A stretch of 64,000 nt of DNA. Source: Spirochaetales bacterium (lineage in GTDB: Bacteria > Spirochaetota > Spirochaetia > Treponematales > UBA12059). The position numbers and the translations under genes are program-made. Positions 6,669 through 16,787 of the stretch are shown here, piece by piece; positions within the stretch are counted from its first letter, which is position 1; every line of letters starts with the position of its first letter. The DNA lies in the NCBI GenBank assembly GCA_016928955.1, contig JAFGJV010000004.1, positions 186,001 to 250,000 of the forward strand. Reading direction: 5' to 3'. A model generated the notes under the pieces. That model saw only the letters and a program-made list of their open reading frames with translations, was not told the DNA's origin and ran no database searches.

Positions 6669-8360
6669 TTAGTCCCGCAGCTCACCACGGACTTTAGCTA
6701 TGCTCCACTCAAGCGCGTCCCTCAACACGGAAGCCCTGCCAGAACCACGCGTCTCCGCTTCCTTGCGGAACGCGGCTACGGAGGGCAGGATGGTTACCAG
6801 GGCCTCAAGGGCATCGGGTTCGAGCTCTGCCATGTATGAGCCGGCCTTGGCCGGCGTCTCGGGACCACGTAGCCGCGGGAGGCCCGTGAGGGCTTTCAGA
6901 TAGGATTTCATAAAATCGTCGGTGCCCATGAACAGCCTTCCGGAGGCAAACACCGCGCCCGGGGGGCCGGGAGGGACCTGCGTAGCTTTGTCTCCGTCCA
7001 GAGTGGAGGCCGCGCCTCCGCCGCGTCGTCTGGTAACGAACATGGCCAGGGATGACCCATAACGCTCAAAGCGCTCCAAATACACATCAAGCTGGCGGTT
7101 CCGGTAGCGGAATAAACCGTCCGGGTCGTTTTCCTTGCGTACGGTGCAGGACCTGAACATGAGCTCGACATGCATGCTCTCGAACGGGCCCAGGCGAGCC
7201 TGCCTGGCGTCAAAATACCGGTGTATGTAGGTACCCCTTGCGTAGCTCCTCCCGCCCGGATACGAATAGTCAGCACCGTAAACGGACACCTGCCTGGCCC
7301 CGAGCCTGGCTGCCAGGGACAGCGCCGCGTGGGTGACATTCCCGCCGGACGTGTCCAGGCTGGGGAAGGCCCTGAGCCTGGACGATATGTAGCCGGCAAA
7401 AGGATGGGCCGACGCAAAGAAGTACGGTCGCCGTGCCAGCCTGGCCAGGTTGGGCGGCGACGCCAGATCGAGGAACAGAGGAACGTCCTCAGGCAAGCCG
7501 TCCATGTAATGGTAGTAGCTGATGTGCTGGCAATCTATGGATATGACCGCGTCAGGTTTCACGCCTGAGCCCAAAAGGGCCGGAAGGCTTGTGTCCGTGG
7601 CAATAAGAAACTCGTCGCGCGAACGGCTTTTCAGGAGGGGCACGGCATCCTCTAGGCTCGGGCCGGCGCCCGTGACGATGGCTCTGCGAACAGGCGCCAC
7701 AGGCGGTGTCGCCAAGCATGCCTGCCGGATGTTCCTGACGATATTGGAAAACCATCGCTTGCCGAAATGCGCCTGTACCGAGTAGTCGTCGGATACGGAC
7801 GACAAGGCCCCCTTCAGGGCCACCGAAGCGCTGTGGAAGCGCTCGCTCTCCGCGTCAACACGGGATGAAAGGGGCACCACGGAAAAACCGCCGGCCACGG
7901 CAGGCACATACAGCTCGGCCACCGCCGCCGCAAGCTCGTCGTCCGCTGGATCGACCATGAGGCACAGGCGCCTGTCAGCCAGGAGCCTGGTCAGGTCCAG
8001 GCGCTCCAGGAGCGCCCTGAGGGTGGACGCCCTGTATTCAACGATGAGACCACGATTCAAAAGCCCGCTATCCAGGAGAGCCAGGGGCAGGAATCCGGCG
8101 CCCAAGCCCAGAAACACGTAAAATCCCCCGCCATCATAGGCGCGCGCAAGGCGCGTGGCTTCCCGTACAGGATCAAAGCGGGAATGCATGTGCGCCCTGC
8201 GCCCGGCCAGGTCAAGATAGGGTACTTGGCTACCGTCCCTGGCGCTCTCAAAACCCACCCTGGTATCTGGGCGAGCGGCTCTGATGCGCGAGGCGGTGGA
8301 TTCTGGGTGAAACGACGCTATGGCAAGCATATTGCGCTCGAACAAGGCCGGATCAGGCAT
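6669..8360 (-). CDS. Maf-family (motility accessory factor / MptE-like DUF115) protein
   Basis: LFERNMLA, HSRFDPVREA, FLGLGAG, WFSNIVRN, VTGAGPSL, IATDT, PDAVISID, GGNVTHAA and GADYSY match the Maf/DUF115 pattern. Confidence 0.85.
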   Translation of the reverse strand: MPDPALFERNMLAIASFHPESTASRIRAARPDTRVGFESARDGSQVPYLDLAGRRAHMHSRFDPVREATRLARAYDGGGFYVFLGLGAGFLPLALLDSGLLNRGLIVEYRASTLRALLERLDLTRLLADRRLCLMVDPADDELAAAVAELYVPAVAGGFSVVPLSSRVDAESERFHSASVALKGALSSVSDDYSVQAHFGKRWFSNIVRNIRQACLATPPVAPVRRAIVTGAGPSLEDAVPLLKSRSRDEFLIATDTSLPALLGSGVKPDAVISIDCQHISYYHYMDGLPEDVPLFLDLASPPNLARLARRPYFFASAHPFAGYISSRLRAFPSLDTSGGNVTHAALSLAARLGARQVSVYGADYSYPGGRSYARGTYIHRYFDARQARLGPFESMHVELMFRSCTVRKENDPDGLFRYRNRQLDVYLERFERYGSSLAMFVTRRRGGGAASTLDGDKATQVPPGPPGAVFASGRLFMGTDDFMKSYLKALTGLPRLRGPETPAKAGSYMAELEPDALEALVTILPSVAAFRKEAETRGSGRASVLRDALEWSIAKVRGELRD

Positions 8361-9894
8361 GGTCTGCCTCCGCAAAGCTGGCACAGCCCCTGTCCACGGC
8401 GGCCAGGGCAGCCTGAATCCGTTCGGCGTCCGAACGCATCCTTGCCGCGTCCGCTATCACGGCGGCCGCGTCTCGTCCGGCCAGGGCCAGCAGGGCAAGC
8501 ACCTGGTCGGGATCCAGGTGGCGGGGTTCAGAGGCAAGGGCCGCGACCGAACTTTTCAGGCTTTGCGCTAGCTGCGCAAGGCCAACGGCAAAGCGCCTGG
8601 CGGGATCCGCGCTGGGATCCGGCGCGGGAATAAGCGCGGGCCGTTGGCTTTTTCCGTATGCGGAAAGAGCGGCGGCAAAAGCGTCCTGGGTAGCCGCAGT
8701 ACACCATGGCAGAGCTCCGGGCCTTCCCAGGGTAAAAAATCGCTTGACGTTGTTCCTTCTCAACCCAGAAGCATAGGCGTCAAAGGCTCTGGACAGCCTC
8801 CATGAGCAGCTGACCTGCGGATATCGCTCAAAAGCGCTGGTCACCATCTGCGACGTGCCGGGGTTGACGCGCGACGAGTATTCCCGGTCCACGTGGTCAA
8901 GGGCATAGGGGCGGGCATGGGCTAGGTAGGATCTGGCCGCGAGATCCAGGCCCGCTATAAACACAGGGCCTGAGCCAGCAGAGGCTGCTATGTCCAAGGC
9001 TGCCCCTGCAGCCGTACCCGAGCTTGGCGCCTTGAAGGCCCTGCTGCCCACGGCCATCGCGGCCAGTTCGTCAAAAGGCAGCGCGGTGTCCAGCGGAAGC
9101 AACATGCCCGCCCCGTCTAGTATGGACGCGGGTAGGAAGGAGCCTGGGGCGCAAGCCAGGGGCACCTTGCCATCCTGGGCCAGGCGCACGTGCAAGGCGT
9201 TCCACGGACCTGGATCGGTGGACACAAGAAGGTCTGGAATGACCCCGTGCTTGGACAAGGCGGCGTGCGCGGCGGCAAGGGCGACCACAAAGACATCCTG
9301 CCGCCTTTCCCTGAGCACGGGGAGAACCGGCTCAAGGCTAGGTCCTGCGCATGCTACTAGCGTCAGCCCCTGGCCAGGCTTGAGTTCGGCCAGGTTCCTG
9401 GGAGCGGCGGAAAAGCGCCAGGCGTTTCTCAGCCAGCGCCTGGCCCAATAGGCAGACGTGGCGGCGTTGGATGAAAGAAGCTCCAGGGCCGTTTCGGCTG
9501 CCGTACGGATACGGCCCGCCCAGCCGGGAAAGGCTCGCATGACCGGAGGCCATTCGAGTATCGCCACACCTCCCGCTGCCTTGCCGTCATACAGCTGAGC
9601 GTCAAAAAAGGCTAAAAGCTCCTGCCCTGAGCCCGGCGACCAGCAGGGATAGGGGAGCGCGGTCCAATGGCGGTCAAAACACGCGTCCGGCTGCACGGCA
9701 AGTATCCTGGTCCCGGGCAGGATGGAACTCAGGGCCGTTGCCAAAAACGGCATGCCGGGGCCAAGGAGTATCACAAGGGACGGGTGCTTGCCCTTGAGCT
9801 CGCGCACGGCAAAACGCTCGGCTTCCCTGCCCGGATCGTAACGCGAGTGGAACGTGTCTGTTCGCGGATCGGACGAGCTCGGGGAAGGGTTCAC
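8353..9894 (-). CDS. Maf-family (MptE-like DUF115) protein, paralogue
   Basis: Start at GTG 9894 (GTGA overlap with the upstream stop); HSRYDPGREA, WLRNA, ACAGPSL, PDLLVSTDPG, SGTAAGAA, GLDLA. Confidence 0.8.
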   Translation of the reverse strand: MNPSPSSSDPRTDTFHSRYDPGREAERFAVRELKGKHPSLVILLGPGMPFLATALSSILPGTRILAVQPDACFDRHWTALPYPCWSPGSGQELLAFFDAQLYDGKAAGGVAILEWPPVMRAFPGWAGRIRTAAETALELLSSNAATSAYWARRWLRNAWRFSAAPRNLAELKPGQGLTLVACAGPSLEPVLPVLRERRQDVFVVALAAAHAALSKHGVIPDLLVSTDPGPWNALHVRLAQDGKVPLACAPGSFLPASILDGAGMLLPLDTALPFDELAAMAVGSRAFKAPSSGTAAGAALDIAASAGSGPVFIAGLDLAARSYLAHARPYALDHVDREYSSRVNPGTSQMVTSAFERYPQVSCSWRLSRAFDAYASGLRRNNVKRFFTLGRPGALPWCTAATQDAFAAALSAYGKSQRPALIPAPDPSADPARRFAVGLAQLAQSLKSSVAALASEPRHLDPDQVLALLALAGRDAAAVIADAARMRSDAERIQAALAAVDRGCASFAEADHA

Positions 9895-10870
9895 GGTTTC
9901 GACAGCATGTCCCGCAGTGCAGCCGCCGCGTCCGGGCTGGCCAGTTGGATGTTCATGAAGGAGACCAGGGCCGGCTGGGCCGCTTTTGGGGCTCCGAACA
10001 TCCGCATCATGGACGAGCTGAGCTGGACCCCGAGCAATTCCGGGTCGCACTGGCGCGGTGAGAAATTGACAGACAGGAGCCGTCGGGACGGAACCAGGCG
10101 AACCATGCCCGTATCGGAAAGCACCAGATTGGCAAAGCGGCCAGCGTCGGCGGCAATGGCCTGGGTAAGGGCATGGGGACATTCGGCCTGAACCCACGCG
10201 ATCAGGGCGCCAAGGTCCAGGATGCATACGGCAGCTTCCCGAGCGCAGCGCGCAGCCGGCTCACCGCGCAGCTCGGAAAAAAGGCTGTCGGCGCTGAGTG
10301 CGGGAGGCCGTGCTACGGTCAGCCGTCTGGCGCGCAATTCGGCGGCCTCGTCGGAGTGCGGGGCCACAACAGGGCCCTGGCTGACCGCTGGATAGCGCAC
10401 GAGCGCCGCAAGTCCGCCAAGGAGGGGCTCAATGGAACACGGGCCGCCACCGGGCAAGGGAAGCGATGCAGTGGCAGGCAAGCCCGAATCGAGATAGGGT
10501 TTAAGGACGCTCAGCTCGAGATCCGGCGGATAGGGTCGGGGTGCCCGGGGGCCAAAGGCAAGGGCGGGTTCATAGCGTTCGTGTGTCAGGAAGTACAAAA
10601 CGCCAAGTTCGTCCGACCCAGTTCTGGCCGCATGCTCGCCGACCTGAAAGGGGTACAGGTAGGCATTCCCCGCGCTTACAGCCGGGGGAACTGGTTTCTG
10701 TACGTCTTTGGATACTTGTTTGGAACTACGCCCAGGCGGAGCGGCTGCTGGGCGGCTTTCCCGAACCTGGTCTACGCGTACGCCGACCGGGACTTTTTTT
10801 TTTGACTCTGACCAAGCAGACCGCCGGGCTGGGCCGTTTTTGCCTCAGCCGCTTTATTCAATAAGCCCAT
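9891..10870 (-). CDS. Hypothetical protein encoded across a -1 frameshift (about 326 aa if recoded; 32-aa product if not)
   Basis: ATG 10870 overlaps the upstream TGA. Frame 0 reads MGLLNKAAEAK...QSQKKKSRSAYA* (stop 10772-10774). The -1 frame is open from the A10 run to 9891 and contains the track ORF 9891..10598. Confidence 0.7.
10793..10804 (-). other. Slippery site C-AAAAAAAAAA-G (codons CAA AAA AAA AAG; heptamer A_AAA_AAG)
   Basis: T10 run at 10794-10803 on the + strand; the heptamer is in the correct phase for a -1 shift into the long downstream frame. Confidence 0.7.
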
Positions 10871-12981
10871 CAGAGCAACCCCAATTCCTCAAACAGCTTT
10901 TTATAGGTGTCGTAATACTCAGAGGACGCAAACTCCTCTATTTTCTCCTCAGGGAGCGATGCAAGAAGCTGGTCCAGGTACAAAAGAACGGATTTAATGT
11001 CCGTCTTTAGCTTGTCGGAAACCACGGGCTCAGGAGCAGACGAATCGTTGGCCGTGGGAGCCGGTGACGGTGCCATTGGTTCGGCGGACGGCATGCCAAA
11101 GGACGGCATGGCTATTGGAGGGGGCGACGACAATTCTATGGGACGCTCGGGCGCTTCTTCCGCTTCCACGAAGAAGGAGTCGTCCAGGCTCATGTTAATC
11201 TCGTCGGGATGCACCTCAACGGGCGTTGCCGGCTTAATGACGCTGCTGTCTATACGGTCGGCCAGGGACTCGCCGCTTTCCTGCTCATCGAGGGGAGAAA
11301 GATCCTCTATGCCGACTTCCTCGGTGTGCAGGTTCATGTCAAACGACACATCTTCGGGCGCCAGTTCCTCAAGCTCGGACGCCTCGAGCTCCTCAAGGGG
11401 AGCCTCTGCTAGGTCGGCGGGCGGAGACTCGGGCTCTTCGCCCTCTATGGAAAGCACCAGTTCGCCAAGATCGTCGTCGCCAGACTCATCCAGCACGAGT
11501 TCGTCGGCAGCTGGCTCCACCAAGGGAGGCTCTTCCAGGTCTTCCGTGTCCAGATAGCTGGTGTCCTCCTCCAGCGGGGTCATCGGGGTCACGTCAACGT
11601 CAGGAAGCTCGTGACTGTCGCTTTCCGCGGGGGTGGCGTCTATGCCGATGTGCTCGATATCCGACGGATGGGCTTCGTAGTCGCCGTCTTCCGGCAGGAT
11701 GGCAAGGTCGGCCTGTCGGTCCGGCGATCCTGCCTCCTCGGTGAAGTCGGCCGTGTTCAGGATATTGTCCAGCTCGTCGCCGGTCAGGGCTATGGTGTCG
11801 TCCTCTTCCTCGTCAAAGAAACCGCCTGACTGGGCCCCTGCCGACTTGGATTCATCCGACTCGGCGCCCTCGGCGGGACGGGAGGATTTCAGCGCTCCGA
11901 GCTGGCTGCGGAGGCTGGATAGCTCGTCTTTGATGGCAGCGAGCTCGGACGCGATGGTTTTGAGCATGTCCGACGCCGCGCCCCCTGAAGGGGATGCCAA
12001 ATCTGAGGTAACGGCCCCTACGTCGTCAAAGCCCACGTCCGAATCAAGGCGGATGCCTTCACGCTGCTCGAGGGAGGGGAGGACGCTGTCACCACCGCCC
12101 TGGTCCGAATCGATGAACGAATCCACGCTGATGCCTGACGGCATTGATTTGGTTTCCATGTCGTCAAAGGCGGCTGTCACGTCTTCCATGGACGAAGCGG
12201 GGCTGGGTATGCCCTCAAGGCCGCCCACGTCCTCGAACACGGGCTTGGATAGATCCTCAACGTCGTCTAGGGAAAACTCCACGCTGGAGTCGGCCGACGG
12301 TTCAGACGGCGCTGGTATGGTGTCGTCAAAATTCAGGTCTATGTCTATGGATTCGAACTCGTCGGCGGGCACCGGCTCGTCGTGGGTTTCCTCTTCCTCG
12401 GACATGCCGAACTCAGACAGGTCCACAGCTTCTGCCCCGGCGCTCGGGGTGGAAGGAGGCTCGGTTTCTTCAGGGGCCTCGTCCATAGAGAACCCAAAGT
12501 CCTCAAGGCTGACTTCCATGGCATCGGACGAGTCGGCCTCTGGCTCCCTGGCTTCAGGCTCTGGGCTACTCAGCCGCTCGGGCGGAGCTTCCGTCAGCTC
12601 GTCCAGGGGTATGTCTATGACAGAGTCTTCAATGACGCCCTCGTCGAGGTTGTCCTCAACGTCCATGATGGCCAGGTCGTCGTCCCCGCCCAGGGTCTGG
12701 ATGTCCAGAACATCGTCCCCGCCATGCTGAGCGGGCTGTTCGTCCTCCACACCCTCAGGAAGACCGAAATCGTCCAGGGACAGCTCGTCATCGGACGCAA
12801 AATCCATGTCCGCGGGAGGAACCAAAGACCCCTCCTCGGCCTCGGAGATGAGTTCGTGTTCGGTTTCCGGCTCCTCGATGACATCCTGAGGCTCCGCCTT
12901 GACCCAGACACCGTATTTTTCCAAATCCTGGTCCGAGGCAAGCTCAGGCACGTCGTGCCCACGCTGTTTCTTGGTCTGCAT
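10870..12981 (-). CDS. Large, highly acidic, largely disordered hypothetical protein
   Basis: Start at ATG 12981 after GGAG; very D/E-rich; ordered islands LEKYGVWVKAEP, a coiled coil, GGFFDEEEDDTIALTGDELDNIL and a C-terminal helical domain. Confidence 0.85.
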   Translation of the reverse strand: MQTKKQRGHDVPELASDQDLEKYGVWVKAEPQDVIEEPETEHELISEAEEGSLVPPADMDFASDDELSLDDFGLPEGVEDEQPAQHGGDDVLDIQTLGGDDDLAIMDVEDNLDEGVIEDSVIDIPLDELTEAPPERLSSPEPEAREPEADSSDAMEVSLEDFGFSMDEAPEETEPPSTPSAGAEAVDLSEFGMSEEEETHDEPVPADEFESIDIDLNFDDTIPAPSEPSADSSVEFSLDDVEDLSKPVFEDVGGLEGIPSPASSMEDVTAAFDDMETKSMPSGISVDSFIDSDQGGGDSVLPSLEQREGIRLDSDVGFDDVGAVTSDLASPSGGAASDMLKTIASELAAIKDELSSLRSQLGALKSSRPAEGAESDESKSAGAQSGGFFDEEEDDTIALTGDELDNILNTADFTEEAGSPDRQADLAILPEDGDYEAHPSDIEHIGIDATPAESDSHELPDVDVTPMTPLEEDTSYLDTEDLEEPPLVEPAADELVLDESGDDDLGELVLSIEGEEPESPPADLAEAPLEELEASELEELAPEDVSFDMNLHTEEVGIEDLSPLDEQESGESLADRIDSSVIKPATPVEVHPDEINMSLDDSFFVEAEEAPERPIELSSPPPIAMPSFGMPSAEPMAPSPAPTANDSSAPEPVVSDKLKTDIKSVLLYLDQLLASLPEEKIEEFASSEYYDTYKKLFEELGLL

Positions 12982-13241
12982 GGCGTAGCGCTCCGTCAAC
13001 GGGATGATTCTAGACCAAATATCGGCACAAAACCCGCTCAAGGGCACAGCAAAAAGCCCGTTGGGCTCCCTCCGCGCTCCTTGTTTCCAGGACCTGCCAC
13101 GGCGCGCGCATACGGGCGTGCCGGTGAATAAACGATCCTGACTCAACTCTACTAGCGCTCAAGTGCGTTGTCAACATCATGGTTTTGCTGATTGAAGATA
13201 GGCGTTCAAGGAGCGGCCCGGGCGAGCCGTTAATAGGAGGG

Positions 13242-13679
13242 ATGAAACGCTCACTCGCAACGGCCGCGTGGACGGCCATCGTGTCGTATTGCCTCATATC
13301 CCTGACGCTCGGGCCTTTCGGTGTCCTGGCGTTCCGCGACGCGGATGGAGCCAGGAAGGCCATGGAAGGCAATATCGTCGAACTGGAACGGATGAACCGC
13401 GCCTTTGAGCGCCAGTGGCAGGCTTTGCGGGCAGACGCCCAATCGGTGGCGCTGGAAGGCCGCACCCTCGGCTATGTGGCCTACGACGAGGTGGCAATAC
13501 GGCTGTCCGTAGGCGGCCGGCCGGGCGTTCCCGCCTCACCAGGAGACATCCTCACGCTTGAGCGGTCAGGCTTCATGGATGACGGCGCCATCAAGCTCTT
13601 TGCCCTTGGTTTGGGGGTGGCCGTGGGAATAGTCACCTTCGGGCTGGGCAGAATGAGACGCGAAACCGGGCGGGAATAG
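13242..13679 (+). CDS. Septum formation initiator (FtsB/DivIC-like) protein
   Basis: AGGAGG RBS; TM helix, GPFG, coiled coil, 'GRTLGYV...E' motif, extra C-terminal TM helix. Confidence 0.65.
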   Translation: MKRSLATAAWTAIVSYCLISLTLGPFGVLAFRDADGARKAMEGNIVELERMNRAFERQWQALRADAQSVALEGRTLGYVAYDEVAIRLSVGGRPGVPASPGDILTLERSGFMDDGAIKLFALGLGVAVGIVTFGLGRMRRETGRE

Positions 13680-13743
13680 GCAACCCAGACATACAGGAGC
13701 CGTACCATGATCGGTGCGCAGTGTCCCTGGGCGCGCCGGCTCG

Positions 13744-14190
13744 CTAATCCTCTATATGAAACAGTTTCTTAAACCACGCGACCAGGGCGTTCCACAGCCT
13801 GGCCAGCAAGCCAGGGTGGTTTAGTCGCTCAAGCCGCGCCAGCCCGTCGGCCACCTCGTCGGCGCTGAGCTGGGCGCGCTGCAGGTTTTCGTCCAGCTCC
13901 AATTCCAAGAGCGCGGCCTTGCCCTGGCCGCGGATCATGATGGCCTCTATCGTGGTCCAGCCCAGGGATTTTGCCGCTTCCAGCCTGCGATGGCCGGACA
14001 CCAAGTGGTAGCGCCTGGTCAGAACCACGGGGTGGAGCTGGCCGAAACGCGCCATGCTGGCCGCCAGCTCCCCGATTGCGCCCATATCCTTGCGTACCCG
14101 CTTGAGAACACGTATCCGCCGTATGTCAACCTGCATATCAGCCCCCGTGGCCGGGTCGGCATCCGCAAACAGCAGCAGCCGACGTCCCAT
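13744..14190 (-). CDS. ParB N-terminal (CTPase) domain protein, short; start may be ATG 14136
   Basis: LAASMARFGQLHPVVL, LVSGHRRLEAAKSLGW and ELDENLQR motifs. Confidence 0.85.
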   Translation of the reverse strand: MGRRLLLFADADPATGADMQVDIRRIRVLKRVRKDMGAIGELAASMARFGQLHPVVLTRRYHLVSGHRRLEAAKSLGWTTIEAIMIRGQGKAALLELELDENLQRAQLSADEVADGLARLERLNHPGLLARLWNALVAWFKKLFHIED

Positions 14191-14192
14191 GC

Positions 14193-16787
14193 TCAGTCAA
14201 GCACGCCAGTTGTGTCGTCTTCAACAACCCCGGTTTCAGGTTCCTGGCCGGTGTCGCCGTCCTCGGTTTCTTCCGTACCCGTATCCTGCTCGCCGTCGGA
14301 CGGAAGCTGGCCTGACAGTATGGAGTCGAGCAGGTCTCCTATGCCGCCGTCGTCAAGGGCGCTGTCCACGGTGGGGCCTCCGAGTGTGGCTGCCTGGTCG
14401 CTCAGCTCCTGGATGCCTTCCTGGGCCTGCTCCGTGTTGAATTCGTGCAGGTCGCAGTACTGCCGCGGCTGGGTTCCCTCAAGGTAGGTAAGCGTGACCA
14501 GCCCGTCGTCGCAGTACTCGGTGGGCAGAAGGCCAGATTCCGCGCATACCGTCACTTCCACTAGCCCGGTGGCCGGTTTGGCAAAGTCCTTGTACGGAAG
14601 CCCCCTGTGTATCTCAGACATGTAGCCGGACCAGGCAGCGCCGGCTATGGTCGCTCCGGTCTGGCTCACGCCCAGGGAATTGCCGCCCTCGTCAAAGCCG
14701 AACCAGATGGCCGTGGTCATATAAGGCGTGTAGCCCACGGTCCATGCGTCTTCCCAGTTCTGGCTGGTTCCCGTCTTGCCTGCGGACGGAATGGTGAATT
14801 TCTTGCCGTCAGCGTCTTTGTAGGTGAATACGGTGCCGCTGGACGAGGGATAGCTCAGGGTGCCGATCTTGACCACGCGCTTGAGCATGTCGGTCATGAT
14901 GTACGCGTTCTGGGGCGACACCACTTGTATGGCCGACCCCTTGCGTTTCTGCTCGGCGCGCAGGTCCTTTTCCGGCTCCAGGATGACGCGTCCGTTCCTA
15001 TCCTCGATGGAACGGACGGCTATGGGCGTGACCTCTCGGCCCTGGTTCCCGAAGATGGCAAAGGCCCTGGCCATGCGCACCGGCGTCACTTCTATAATGC
15101 CGAGCGCCAGAGGGTATACGCGGGGGAAGGTGGTGCGGATTTGCTCTGGGTCGGTTATGTCCAGGAGGGCGGCTGCTCGGCTGATGGCGGCGTCAAAGCC
15201 TATGCCGTCAAGCACTTTGACAGCCGGTATGTTCATGGACGCTGCCAAGGCTTGGTACACAAGCACGGGGCCCTGCCATTCGCCCTTGTAGTTATTGGGA
15301 ACGTAGGGGGTGCCGTCCTCGTTGTAAAACACCATGGGCGCGTCGTAAATAAGCGTGCCCTGGCTGAACAGGCGGGAGTCGATGGCCGCAGAATAGAACA
15401 GAGGCTTGAAGGACGAGCCGGGGGTGATGGCGCTGATGGTGGCCCGGTTGAATTCGTTTTCTTTCCATACGAACTCCGAGCCGCCGACCATGGCCAGTAT
15501 GTAGCCCTTCTCGGTGTCGAGGGTAATTAGGGCGCCTTCCACCGTGGTTTTCTTCAGTTCCTTCTGCACGGCGCCGTAGCTGGTGCTCGTTGCGGCCTTG
15601 AGGGAATCCAGACCGAACATCAAGGCCAGGGCGTCCACGGTGGGATTGACGGACTTGGTGTAGTAATCCATGGCCTGGCTCTCCAGTTTTGAGCCGCGGC
15701 GGAAGACGCCCTCCAGGTTGAACGCCAGGCTGAACAGCTCGGCCATGGGCGCGTACAGAAGCTCGGCGTCCTTAAGGCGCATCGAGCTGGACTGCAGATA
15801 CGTCTTGTTCACCTGCTCGATGTAGCGGGCCATGTAGCGGTCGGCGACGGCTTGGTAATCCAGGTTCAGCGTGGTGTGTACCGTGAGCCCGTCCCGGTAC
15901 AGGTCGGTGGAGCCGTACAGCAGGTCCTGGAGCTGTATGCGCACGTACTCGCTGAACCAGGGCGCCTTGTCGTTCCGCGGGTTGTATGCCTCTCCGGATG
16001 CCCTGGTATAGTCAAAGTTGTCCCAATACAGGTTAAAGGACGTGTCGGCCTCGTCCCTGGTCGCAAAGCCAAAGTCTACCATGTCGTCAAGGACGGCCCT
16101 GGATCGGTCGCGGGCTACGTTCGGGTTCCGGAGAGGGTTGTAGCGCGTCGGGGCTGATAGCTGGACCGCCAGGATGGCGGCCTCGGCCAGGGTCACTTCC
16201 TTGGCGCTGTGGCCGAAATAATATTTGCTGGCGGCCTCCACCCCATAGGTGCCGGGGCCCATGATCATCCTGTTCAGGTACATCTCCAGGATTTCCTGTT
16301 TGGAGTACCTGCGCTCCAGCTGGAGGGCGTACCACAGCTCGACGAATTTCCGCCGGTAGCTGATATCCCTCCGGTCGGCGTACAGGGTTCCCGCCAGCTG
16401 GAGGGTTATGGTTGAACCGCCGCCGAGGTTCTTGCCCAAGATCTGGCCAGCCAGGGCGCGCACGTAGCCTTTGAGGGTGAAGCCGGGATGGGTCCAGAAC
16501 GTTTTGTCCTCACGGATTACTATGGCGTCAACCAGGTGTTGGGGAAGGTCCTTTATGGACACGATTTCGCGCTTGATGTCGGCCGAAAACTCGGTAATGA
16601 CCCGCCCGTTGACGTCCAGGATGCGGGACGGAATCTCGGGGTCGAACTGCGAGAAATTCTCCACGGACATCATGTTTTTGGTCGTTGCTACGGCCATGCC
16701 GAACGCCACACCAATCCCGAGGGCCGATACCAGGGTCAGGACGGTCAGGGTTTTTAGGAGCACGGACGCGATCTTCTTCGGCTTCAT
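14193..16787 (-). CDS. Penicillin-binding protein 1A family (transglycosylase/transpeptidase)
   Basis: EDKTFWTHPG, GGSTITLQL and RKFVE transglycosylase motifs; GSSFKP, SMN and KTG transpeptidase motifs. Confidence 0.95.
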   Translation of the reverse strand: MKPKKIASVLLKTLTVLTLVSALGIGVAFGMAVATTKNMMSVENFSQFDPEIPSRILDVNGRVITEFSADIKREIVSIKDLPQHLVDAIVIREDKTFWTHPGFTLKGYVRALAGQILGKNLGGGSTITLQLAGTLYADRRDISYRRKFVELWYALQLERRYSKQEILEMYLNRMIMGPGTYGVEAASKYYFGHSAKEVTLAEAAILAVQLSAPTRYNPLRNPNVARDRSRAVLDDMVDFGFATRDEADTSFNLYWDNFDYTRASGEAYNPRNDKAPWFSEYVRIQLQDLLYGSTDLYRDGLTVHTTLNLDYQAVADRYMARYIEQVNKTYLQSSSMRLKDAELLYAPMAELFSLAFNLEGVFRRGSKLESQAMDYYTKSVNPTVDALALMFGLDSLKAATSTSYGAVQKELKKTTVEGALITLDTEKGYILAMVGGSEFVWKENEFNRATISAITPGSSFKPLFYSAAIDSRLFSQGTLIYDAPMVFYNEDGTPYVPNNYKGEWQGPVLVYQALAASMNIPAVKVLDGIGFDAAISRAAALLDITDPEQIRTTFPRVYPLALGIIEVTPVRMARAFAIFGNQGREVTPIAVRSIEDRNGRVILEPEKDLRAEQKRKGSAIQVVSPQNAYIMTDMLKRVVKIGTLSYPSSSGTVFTYKDADGKKFTIPSAGKTGTSQNWEDAWTVGYTPYMTTAIWFGFDEGGNSLGVSQTGATIAGAAWSGYMSEIHRGLPYKDFAKPATGLVEVTVCAESGLLPTEYCDDGLVTLTYLEGTQPRQYCDLHEFNTEQAQEGIQELSDQAATLGGPTVDSALDDGGIGDLLDSILSGQLPSDGEQDTGTEETEDGDTGQEPETGVVEDDTTGVLD

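Follow-up and report, generated by a model that had tools for sequence, protein, structure and literature searches.

On the minus strand of the window, the whole 64,000-nucleotide stretch analyzed here, lies an operon in which a split gene stands between a TP_0179-family gene and two MptE-like genes. The upstream gene (10870..12981) encodes an acidic, largely low-complexity protein of 703 aa that matches Pfam PF27359, with a conserved C-terminal domain (10873-11022) that is likely a helical hairpin. Its TGA (10872-10870) overlaps the ATG of the split gene at 10870, as expected from the original prediction of a start coupled to the upstream stop. From this ATG runs a 0-frame ORF of 32 aa (10772..10870, minus strand; MGLLNKAAEAKTAQPGGLLGQSQKKKSRSAYA; stop at 10774-10772), which would be the product of unslipped mRNA and is a predicted docking peptide carrying two GLL motifs, MGLLNKA and GGLLGQS. 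The recoding site within it is a run of ten A (10794..10803, minus strand; CAA AAA AAA AAG). The -1 frame is closed 13 codons 5′ of this A10 and then open for 317 codons up to a TGA at 9893-9891. The resulting ORF (9891..10793, minus strand) comprises a linker, a predicted GAF domain and a predicted degenerate GGDEF fold, and the earliest candidate for a start of its own, a TTG at 10598, would remove part of the predicted GAF domain (model P0001, residues 39-158). Closure just 5′ of the run, some 300 open codons beyond it and the lack of a convincing start had all been claimed beforehand and hold true, as do the two product lengths, computed as 32 aa in the 0 frame and 326 aa after the addition of one A.

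The first MptE-like gene (8353..9894, minus strand; PF01973, Maf-type) likely starts with a GTG that overlaps the stop of the -1 ORF (GTGA), and the second (6669..8360, minus strand; PF01973) is coupled to the first. A sigma-70-like promoter match, TTGACA-17-TAGAGT (13146..13174, minus strand), is found 5′ of the operon; it is a consensus match only, and promoter-type matches number 2 against 1.2 expected. The region further 5′ (13179-16787 of the window) contains a divergent DivIC-like ORF (weak Pfam match, E 0.009), a ParB-N protein and, by inspection, a penicillin-binding-protein-like ORF.

Long homopolymers are rare in this genome (2.87 Mb, 63.5% GC), which contains 112 runs of A/T8, 8 of A/T9 and 2 of A/T10. 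The A10 of the split gene is the sole run of at least nine A found in coding sense, and none was observed in 2.36 Mb of long high-GC3 ORFs; by inspection the remaining nine runs of 9-10 are apparently non-coding, and they mostly lie beside hairpins. The run was also recovered from a second strain, separated by 22-24 substitutions in about 2 kb, whose contigs (from one DNA run and two RNA-labelled runs, X10 and X11) cross it without an indel. Since these contigs list no indel, we consider the A10 in the DNA to be correct, and the run is A10 rather than an in-frame A11. In X10 and X11 the contigs show A10 at a depth of 3-5, and such contigs drop rare variants and may contain DNA; the contigs of a third RNA-labelled run, X19, leave the split-gene site uncovered.

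A first search with the shifted ORF as query identified 8 relatives among 40 other genomes, all eight with the split anatomy. To avoid selecting by the trait itself, the last 50 residues of the upstream gene later served as anchor, with matches in 371 of the 401 genomes searched for the order and 255 of the 401 for the class, and, with this query, in 0 of 38 and 0 of 37 genomes of two well-sampled families. The 240 loci that we read comprised 80 of the order search, 80 of the class search, for the most part its top-ranked matches and distributed over families, and 80 of the 102 in a named collection. Removal of 26 duplicates and hand correction of nine rows left 214 distinct loci, related loci included, so that the counts are not independent. 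The gene is split in 78 of them, in frame in 112 and absent from 19; three were unparsed, one is a remnant and one is cut off. Split loci belong to 20 families (19 coded and one counted under its named duplicate), both inside and outside the order, and their runs are A10 in 69, A9 in 4, A11 in 2 and A12 in 3 cases, with just 34 codons after the run in one of the 78. Relatives thus keep a short MGLL.KA…KKK ORF with an out-of-frame A run, which is what the original prediction proposed to look for in orthologues.

The in-frame orthologues share the N-terminal motif M[GS]L[LF]x[KR]A with the split genes, which indicates that the joined protein is a natural protein. Among 22 pairs compared, of which 5 were saturated, dN/dS of the shifted ORF was 0.04-0.33 in 15 of 17 unsaturated pairs and 0.50 and 0.62 in the other two; by this measure the shifted ORF is under purifying selection. 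No common start codon was found in the shifted frame, the first start lying anywhere between codon 1 and codon 165. A tree of the neighboring gene with 132 rows requires 15 changes of the split state, of which starred branches force 4, and in two families in-frame genes retaining the run sit within or beside split clades. This tree was built with FastTree from a 170-column fragment, has long branches and gives no direction of change. We conclude that the recoding site is real, class-wide and conserved; programmed recoding in a non-mobile chromosomal gene is supported, and the persistence of this split in relatives throughout the class makes it likely that the cell produces both the short peptide and the full-length, signalling-type protein. 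The short product is not universal, nor is the gene, since 89 of 112 in-frame orthologues have no run of at least ten A and the gene is absent at the 19 loci mentioned. Some loci have short forms of the gene, of 113-180 aa or with a shifted part of 130-177 aa, that are apparently devoid of the GAF region; these occur both split and in frame (L021, L015, L049, L052, L054, L067, and L071).

We propose that RNA polymerase slips at the A10 and adds one A in a fraction of transcripts. With the extra A, the 32-aa frame would continue into the -1 frame and give the 326-aa protein with its predicted GAF and degenerate GGDEF parts; from unslipped mRNA nothing but the short MGLLxKA peptide would be made. 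From comparison of the loci we infer that the frame change is due to the polymerase and not to the ribosome, and slippage at the A10 split is, in our judgment, the probable source of the joined protein. It is favored over -1 frameshifting because the length of the run is kept and its phase, the heptamer, a Shine-Dalgarno (SD) word and a hairpin are not. The codon phase of the run is 1, 2, or 0 in 57, 12, and 9 split loci, respectively, the run is followed by G in 47, by C in 27, and by T in 4, and no split allele among the 78 has a run shorter than 9, though for a ribosome 7 A would suffice. According to passages of PMC5009743, slippage by bacterial polymerase is efficient once a run reaches 9 A or T, and selection against runs commonly begins at 9 (PMC1088944, in part). 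Ribosome sliding in E. coli extracts is described as slight at A9-A10 and robust at A11 in a portion of PMC4363877.

Programmed -1 ribosomal frameshifting, by a tandem tRNA-Lys slip on A_AAA_AAG or A_AAA_AAA or by sliding on the run, would yield the same two products from unchanged mRNA, and we regard it as an unlikely alternative. A usable A_AAA_AAA lies inside any A10, and the run of the window is a perfect in-frame A_AAA_AAG, with the same heptamer and direction as the -1 frameshifting of E. coli dnaX and IS3-type elements. This heptamer occurs in frame in 37 of 78 split loci (24 of 35 in the home family and 13 of 43 outside it). Unlike in those systems, however, the heptamer, SD word and 3′ stem-loop are not conserved here, and a tRNA-Lys(CUU) is present. 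Within 25 nt 5′ of the run, the SD-like words GAGG, GGAG, and AGGA appear in 11, 9, and 9 of 78 loci, respectively, and none appears in the window; given this rarity, an internal SD stimulator was rejected. A stimulatory hairpin 2-5 nt after the run had also been suggested, yet in the window the 50 nt following it fold no better than shuffles (z about +0.6). Over 73 loci there is a slight excess of 3′ structure (mean z -0.83, with 10 of 73 below -2, versus a mean z of about 0 and 2-4 of 73 below -2 for control windows further downstream), in a test of hairpin folding against shuffles.

The direction of the shift also speaks for the ribosome. Of the 78 split loci, 76 have the long frame at -1 and 2 have it at +1, and a single direction among orthologues is given as a sign of ribosomal frameshifting in section 10 of PMC3711429, whose section 19 reports 10-63% shifting for chlD-type poly-A cassettes in E. 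coli reporters. The two A9/+1 alleles (L061 in G148 and L026 in G101) were considered as evidence for slippage and dropped: L026 has an otherwise identical 1,149-nt contig, L289, with A10, so one of the two is probably an assembly slip and neither is usable in this way. Polymerase slippage in Thermus dnaX has been linked to the presence of two lysine tRNAs (PMC5009743, in part), and tRNA-Lys(CUU) and tRNA-Lys(UUU) are both present in this genome. ARAGORN lists, among 46 parsed genes of genome G000, a selenocysteine tRNA along with both lysine tRNAs. Where the original prediction left slippage and frameshifting side by side, programmed recoding is therefore upheld and the polymerase option fits better, and the ribosomal details of dnaX/IS3 type find no support.

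The model of the shifted ORF (mean pLDDT 84) displays a GAF fold at residues 39-158 followed by a GGDEF fold at 160-299. Comparison with Dcsbis (4zmu) gave a Foldseek E value of 5.7e-4 and a Z score of 10.1 (rmsd 8.8, 232 aligned), and the GGDEF part compared with 4zmm gave a Z score of 10.8 (rmsd 3.6, 134 aligned). In addition, the predicted model of an in-frame orthologue has GAF/GGDEF look-alikes. In this predicted order of GAF and then GGDEF fold the protein resembles Dcsbis and PelD (4euv) of Pseudomonas aeruginosa, from which it differs by an identity of 8-16% and by a family without GG[DE]EF. This catalytic motif was found in 0 of 113 aligned members, so the split protein is likely no cyclase. 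Searches of Pfam and NCBIfam returned no family for it, apart from one weak GGDEF match (E 0.005) in 1 of 15 sequences. In-frame orthologues without a long run carry a motif [IL][TN]QxE[LI][DN]x[LI] 34-49 residues in (L120, L125, L182, L187, L209, and L237), which we take to resemble the CheY-P-binding peptide of FliM, and the upstream protein has a similar motif, LTGDELDNIL.

PF27359, the TP_0179 family, is annotated (precomputed) on 120 of 120 homologues of the upstream protein among the matches listed, including a 99%-identical entry; the feature scores of 0.79-0.82 are a lead on their own. In its length, its acidity and its small conserved domain at the C terminus, the upstream protein is like FimV/HubP, which we take to be polar hub proteins, and several of its homologues are automatically named “pilus assembly protein FimV”. 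Unlike FimV/HubP, it belongs to its own Pfam family, TP_0179.

A metagenome scan for the pattern MGLL[DE]KA plus A8 yielded 41 matches, and in 26 of these the C-terminal domain of the upstream protein, which was outside the scan pattern, ends beside the MGLL[DE]KA start. In nine of the 26, on low-GC contigs (profile E 7e-11 to 2e-8; L256, L258, L259, L264, L266, L267, L276, L282, and L290) that are probably archaeal, the motif, often repeated, heads a different protein. The four such proteins tested all had FlaI/VirB11-type ATPases as best match, below curated cut-offs and with partial sequences. Because the pairing recurs with two unrelated cargoes, the hairpin domain and GLLxKA may together form a docking module. 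A predicted complex of the MGLLxKA peptide with the TP_0179 C-terminal domain scored 0.32, versus 0.01 for the best control, with a partner pLDDT of 56 and a contact agreement of at least 84%. This complex lends docking weak support, a mark that 18 of 157 solved complexes and both of the 2 mismatches (of 215) that passed also reached at scores of 0.60 or under. In view of the recurrence of the pair before FlaI-like ATPases and of two loci that encode the peptide alone, the probable docking site of MGLLxKA is the hairpin at the C terminus of the upstream TP_0179-family protein. Both products carry the motif, and the free peptide and the full-length protein would thus compete for one TP_0179 site. 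We also considered MGLLxKA as a membrane anchor, likening it to amphipathic N-terminal helices; this reading had little support (mean hydrophobic moment 0.32, and 0.21 in the window).

Both products probably matter. Among the 112 in-frame genes, 23 keep a run of at least ten A near the same place, and slippage there would give, by computation, products mostly of 23-60 aa. All five in-frame genomes tested, each with such a gene, have just 2, 2, 2, 7, and 13 runs of this length genome-wide, one of them in this gene. Two spirochaete-like metagenome loci of 30% GC (L265:1101-1247 and L294:1035-1184), which count among the 26 above, encode a 49-50-aa MGLL[DE]KA peptide alone, between the upstream gene and a directly following Maf-type gene. 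An alternative is that the split is a tolerated “saviour” frameshift: the spirochaete polymerase would slip on any A10, the peptide would have no role, and the split would be a nearly neutral relic or a simple way to lower expression. The loss of run or gene in many lineages is consistent with this, but it appears improbable given that the split is maintained in 20 families, that the run is retained after a return to frame, where the short product is the only thing it could add, that the two loci above encode the peptide alone, and that runs of at least nine A are purged from other coding DNA.

Phase variation, in which replication slippage would toggle the gene between ON (A11) and OFF (A10) in subpopulations, had been raised as a further alternative and we find it very improbable. 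The two-domain gene accounts for 16 of the 41 metagenome matches, at least 6 of which repeat reference genomes; it is split at A10 in 14 of them, and in frame with A11 in one and with A12 in another. The A11 locus (L271:207-1193) is home-family-like, encodes 329 aa and may be a fixed lineage, a phase variant or an assembly slip. This locus, the two A9 alleles among the 78 split loci and the Maf-type neighbors would suit such a switch. Conversely, an in-frame A11 was found in 0 of 37 home-family reference loci, the second strain of the same species is also A10, and an OFF state in almost every consensus is not to be expected of an ORF under purifying selection. Finally, an assembly error in the homopolymer, as the original prediction had also considered, a pseudogene, or two genes with internal initiation can be practically dismissed: the two A9 alleles do suggest occasional assembly slips at the run, but the split is found again and again, in 78 assemblies and in independent runs, including the second strain, dN/dS is low, first starts in the shifted frame are scattered, and in-frame orthologues fuse both parts.

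Returning to slippage by the polymerase, its effect may reach beyond the split gene. Two MptE-like genes follow, which presumably resemble Maf flagellin glycosyltransferases, and a start lies within -20 to +12 nt of the shifted-ORF stop in 38 of 54 split loci. Owing to this position of the next start, slippage would in addition cap how much the Maf-type gene downstream is translated by coupling. As a tentative overall model, which we hold to be possible and no firmer than that, slippage at A10 would act as a class-wide stoichiometry switch, setting free MGLLxKA peptide against a docked GAF-GGDEF-like adaptor on a TP_0179 scaffold and thereby the output of the coupled flagellin-glycosylation-type genes. 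In the same tentative model, the hairpin domain and GLLxKA would make up a hitherto undescribed docking module that serves archaeal-type pilus ATPases as well.

To our knowledge, few families of non-mobile bacterial genes show conserved recoding, namely prfB, dnaX, and chlD-type genes. A split gene such as this would be mis-annotated as a truncated hypothetical gene. Across the 20 Spirochaetia families the polarity switches repeatedly while the run stays, and the natural alleles (split, in frame with the run, in frame without it, and peptide only) offer a ready series on selection for two products. The locus also provides a first handle on the uncharacterized TP_0179 family and a candidate docking module. 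We found no literature on this site; the supplement of PMC3711429, which likely holds cluster tables and lay outside our search, may list the family, and the portion of PMC13749626 available makes no mention of these genes.

In Shigella flexneri spa13/mxiE, as described in part of PMC5009743, slippage likewise extends a short 0-frame ORF, here into a frame whose end falls on the start of the next gene, which slippage therefore affects as well; that system is plasmid-borne, serves type III secretion and is confined to one genus, whereas the present one is chromosomal and class-wide. The dnaX of Thermus thermophilus (A9) and the two-ORF “reversed” dnaX (A10) are, in passages of PMC5009743 and PMC3711429, similarly chromosomal, non-mobile and dependent on runs of A9-10, with short and long products that share the N terminus and with both polarities among lineages. 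The protein of the split gene is unrelated to DnaX, the peptide made as its short product measures some 15-80 aa, and there are repeated changes in polarity, or losses of the run, inside a single class. In the window's genome, dnaX carries no A10-type run. In two of the five in-frame genomes tested, the sole other run of at least ten A lies in frame in dnaX, after domain III (L250, G006:C9:79081-79091; L251, G017:C68:15227-15237), as one of only two A10 runs in each genome.
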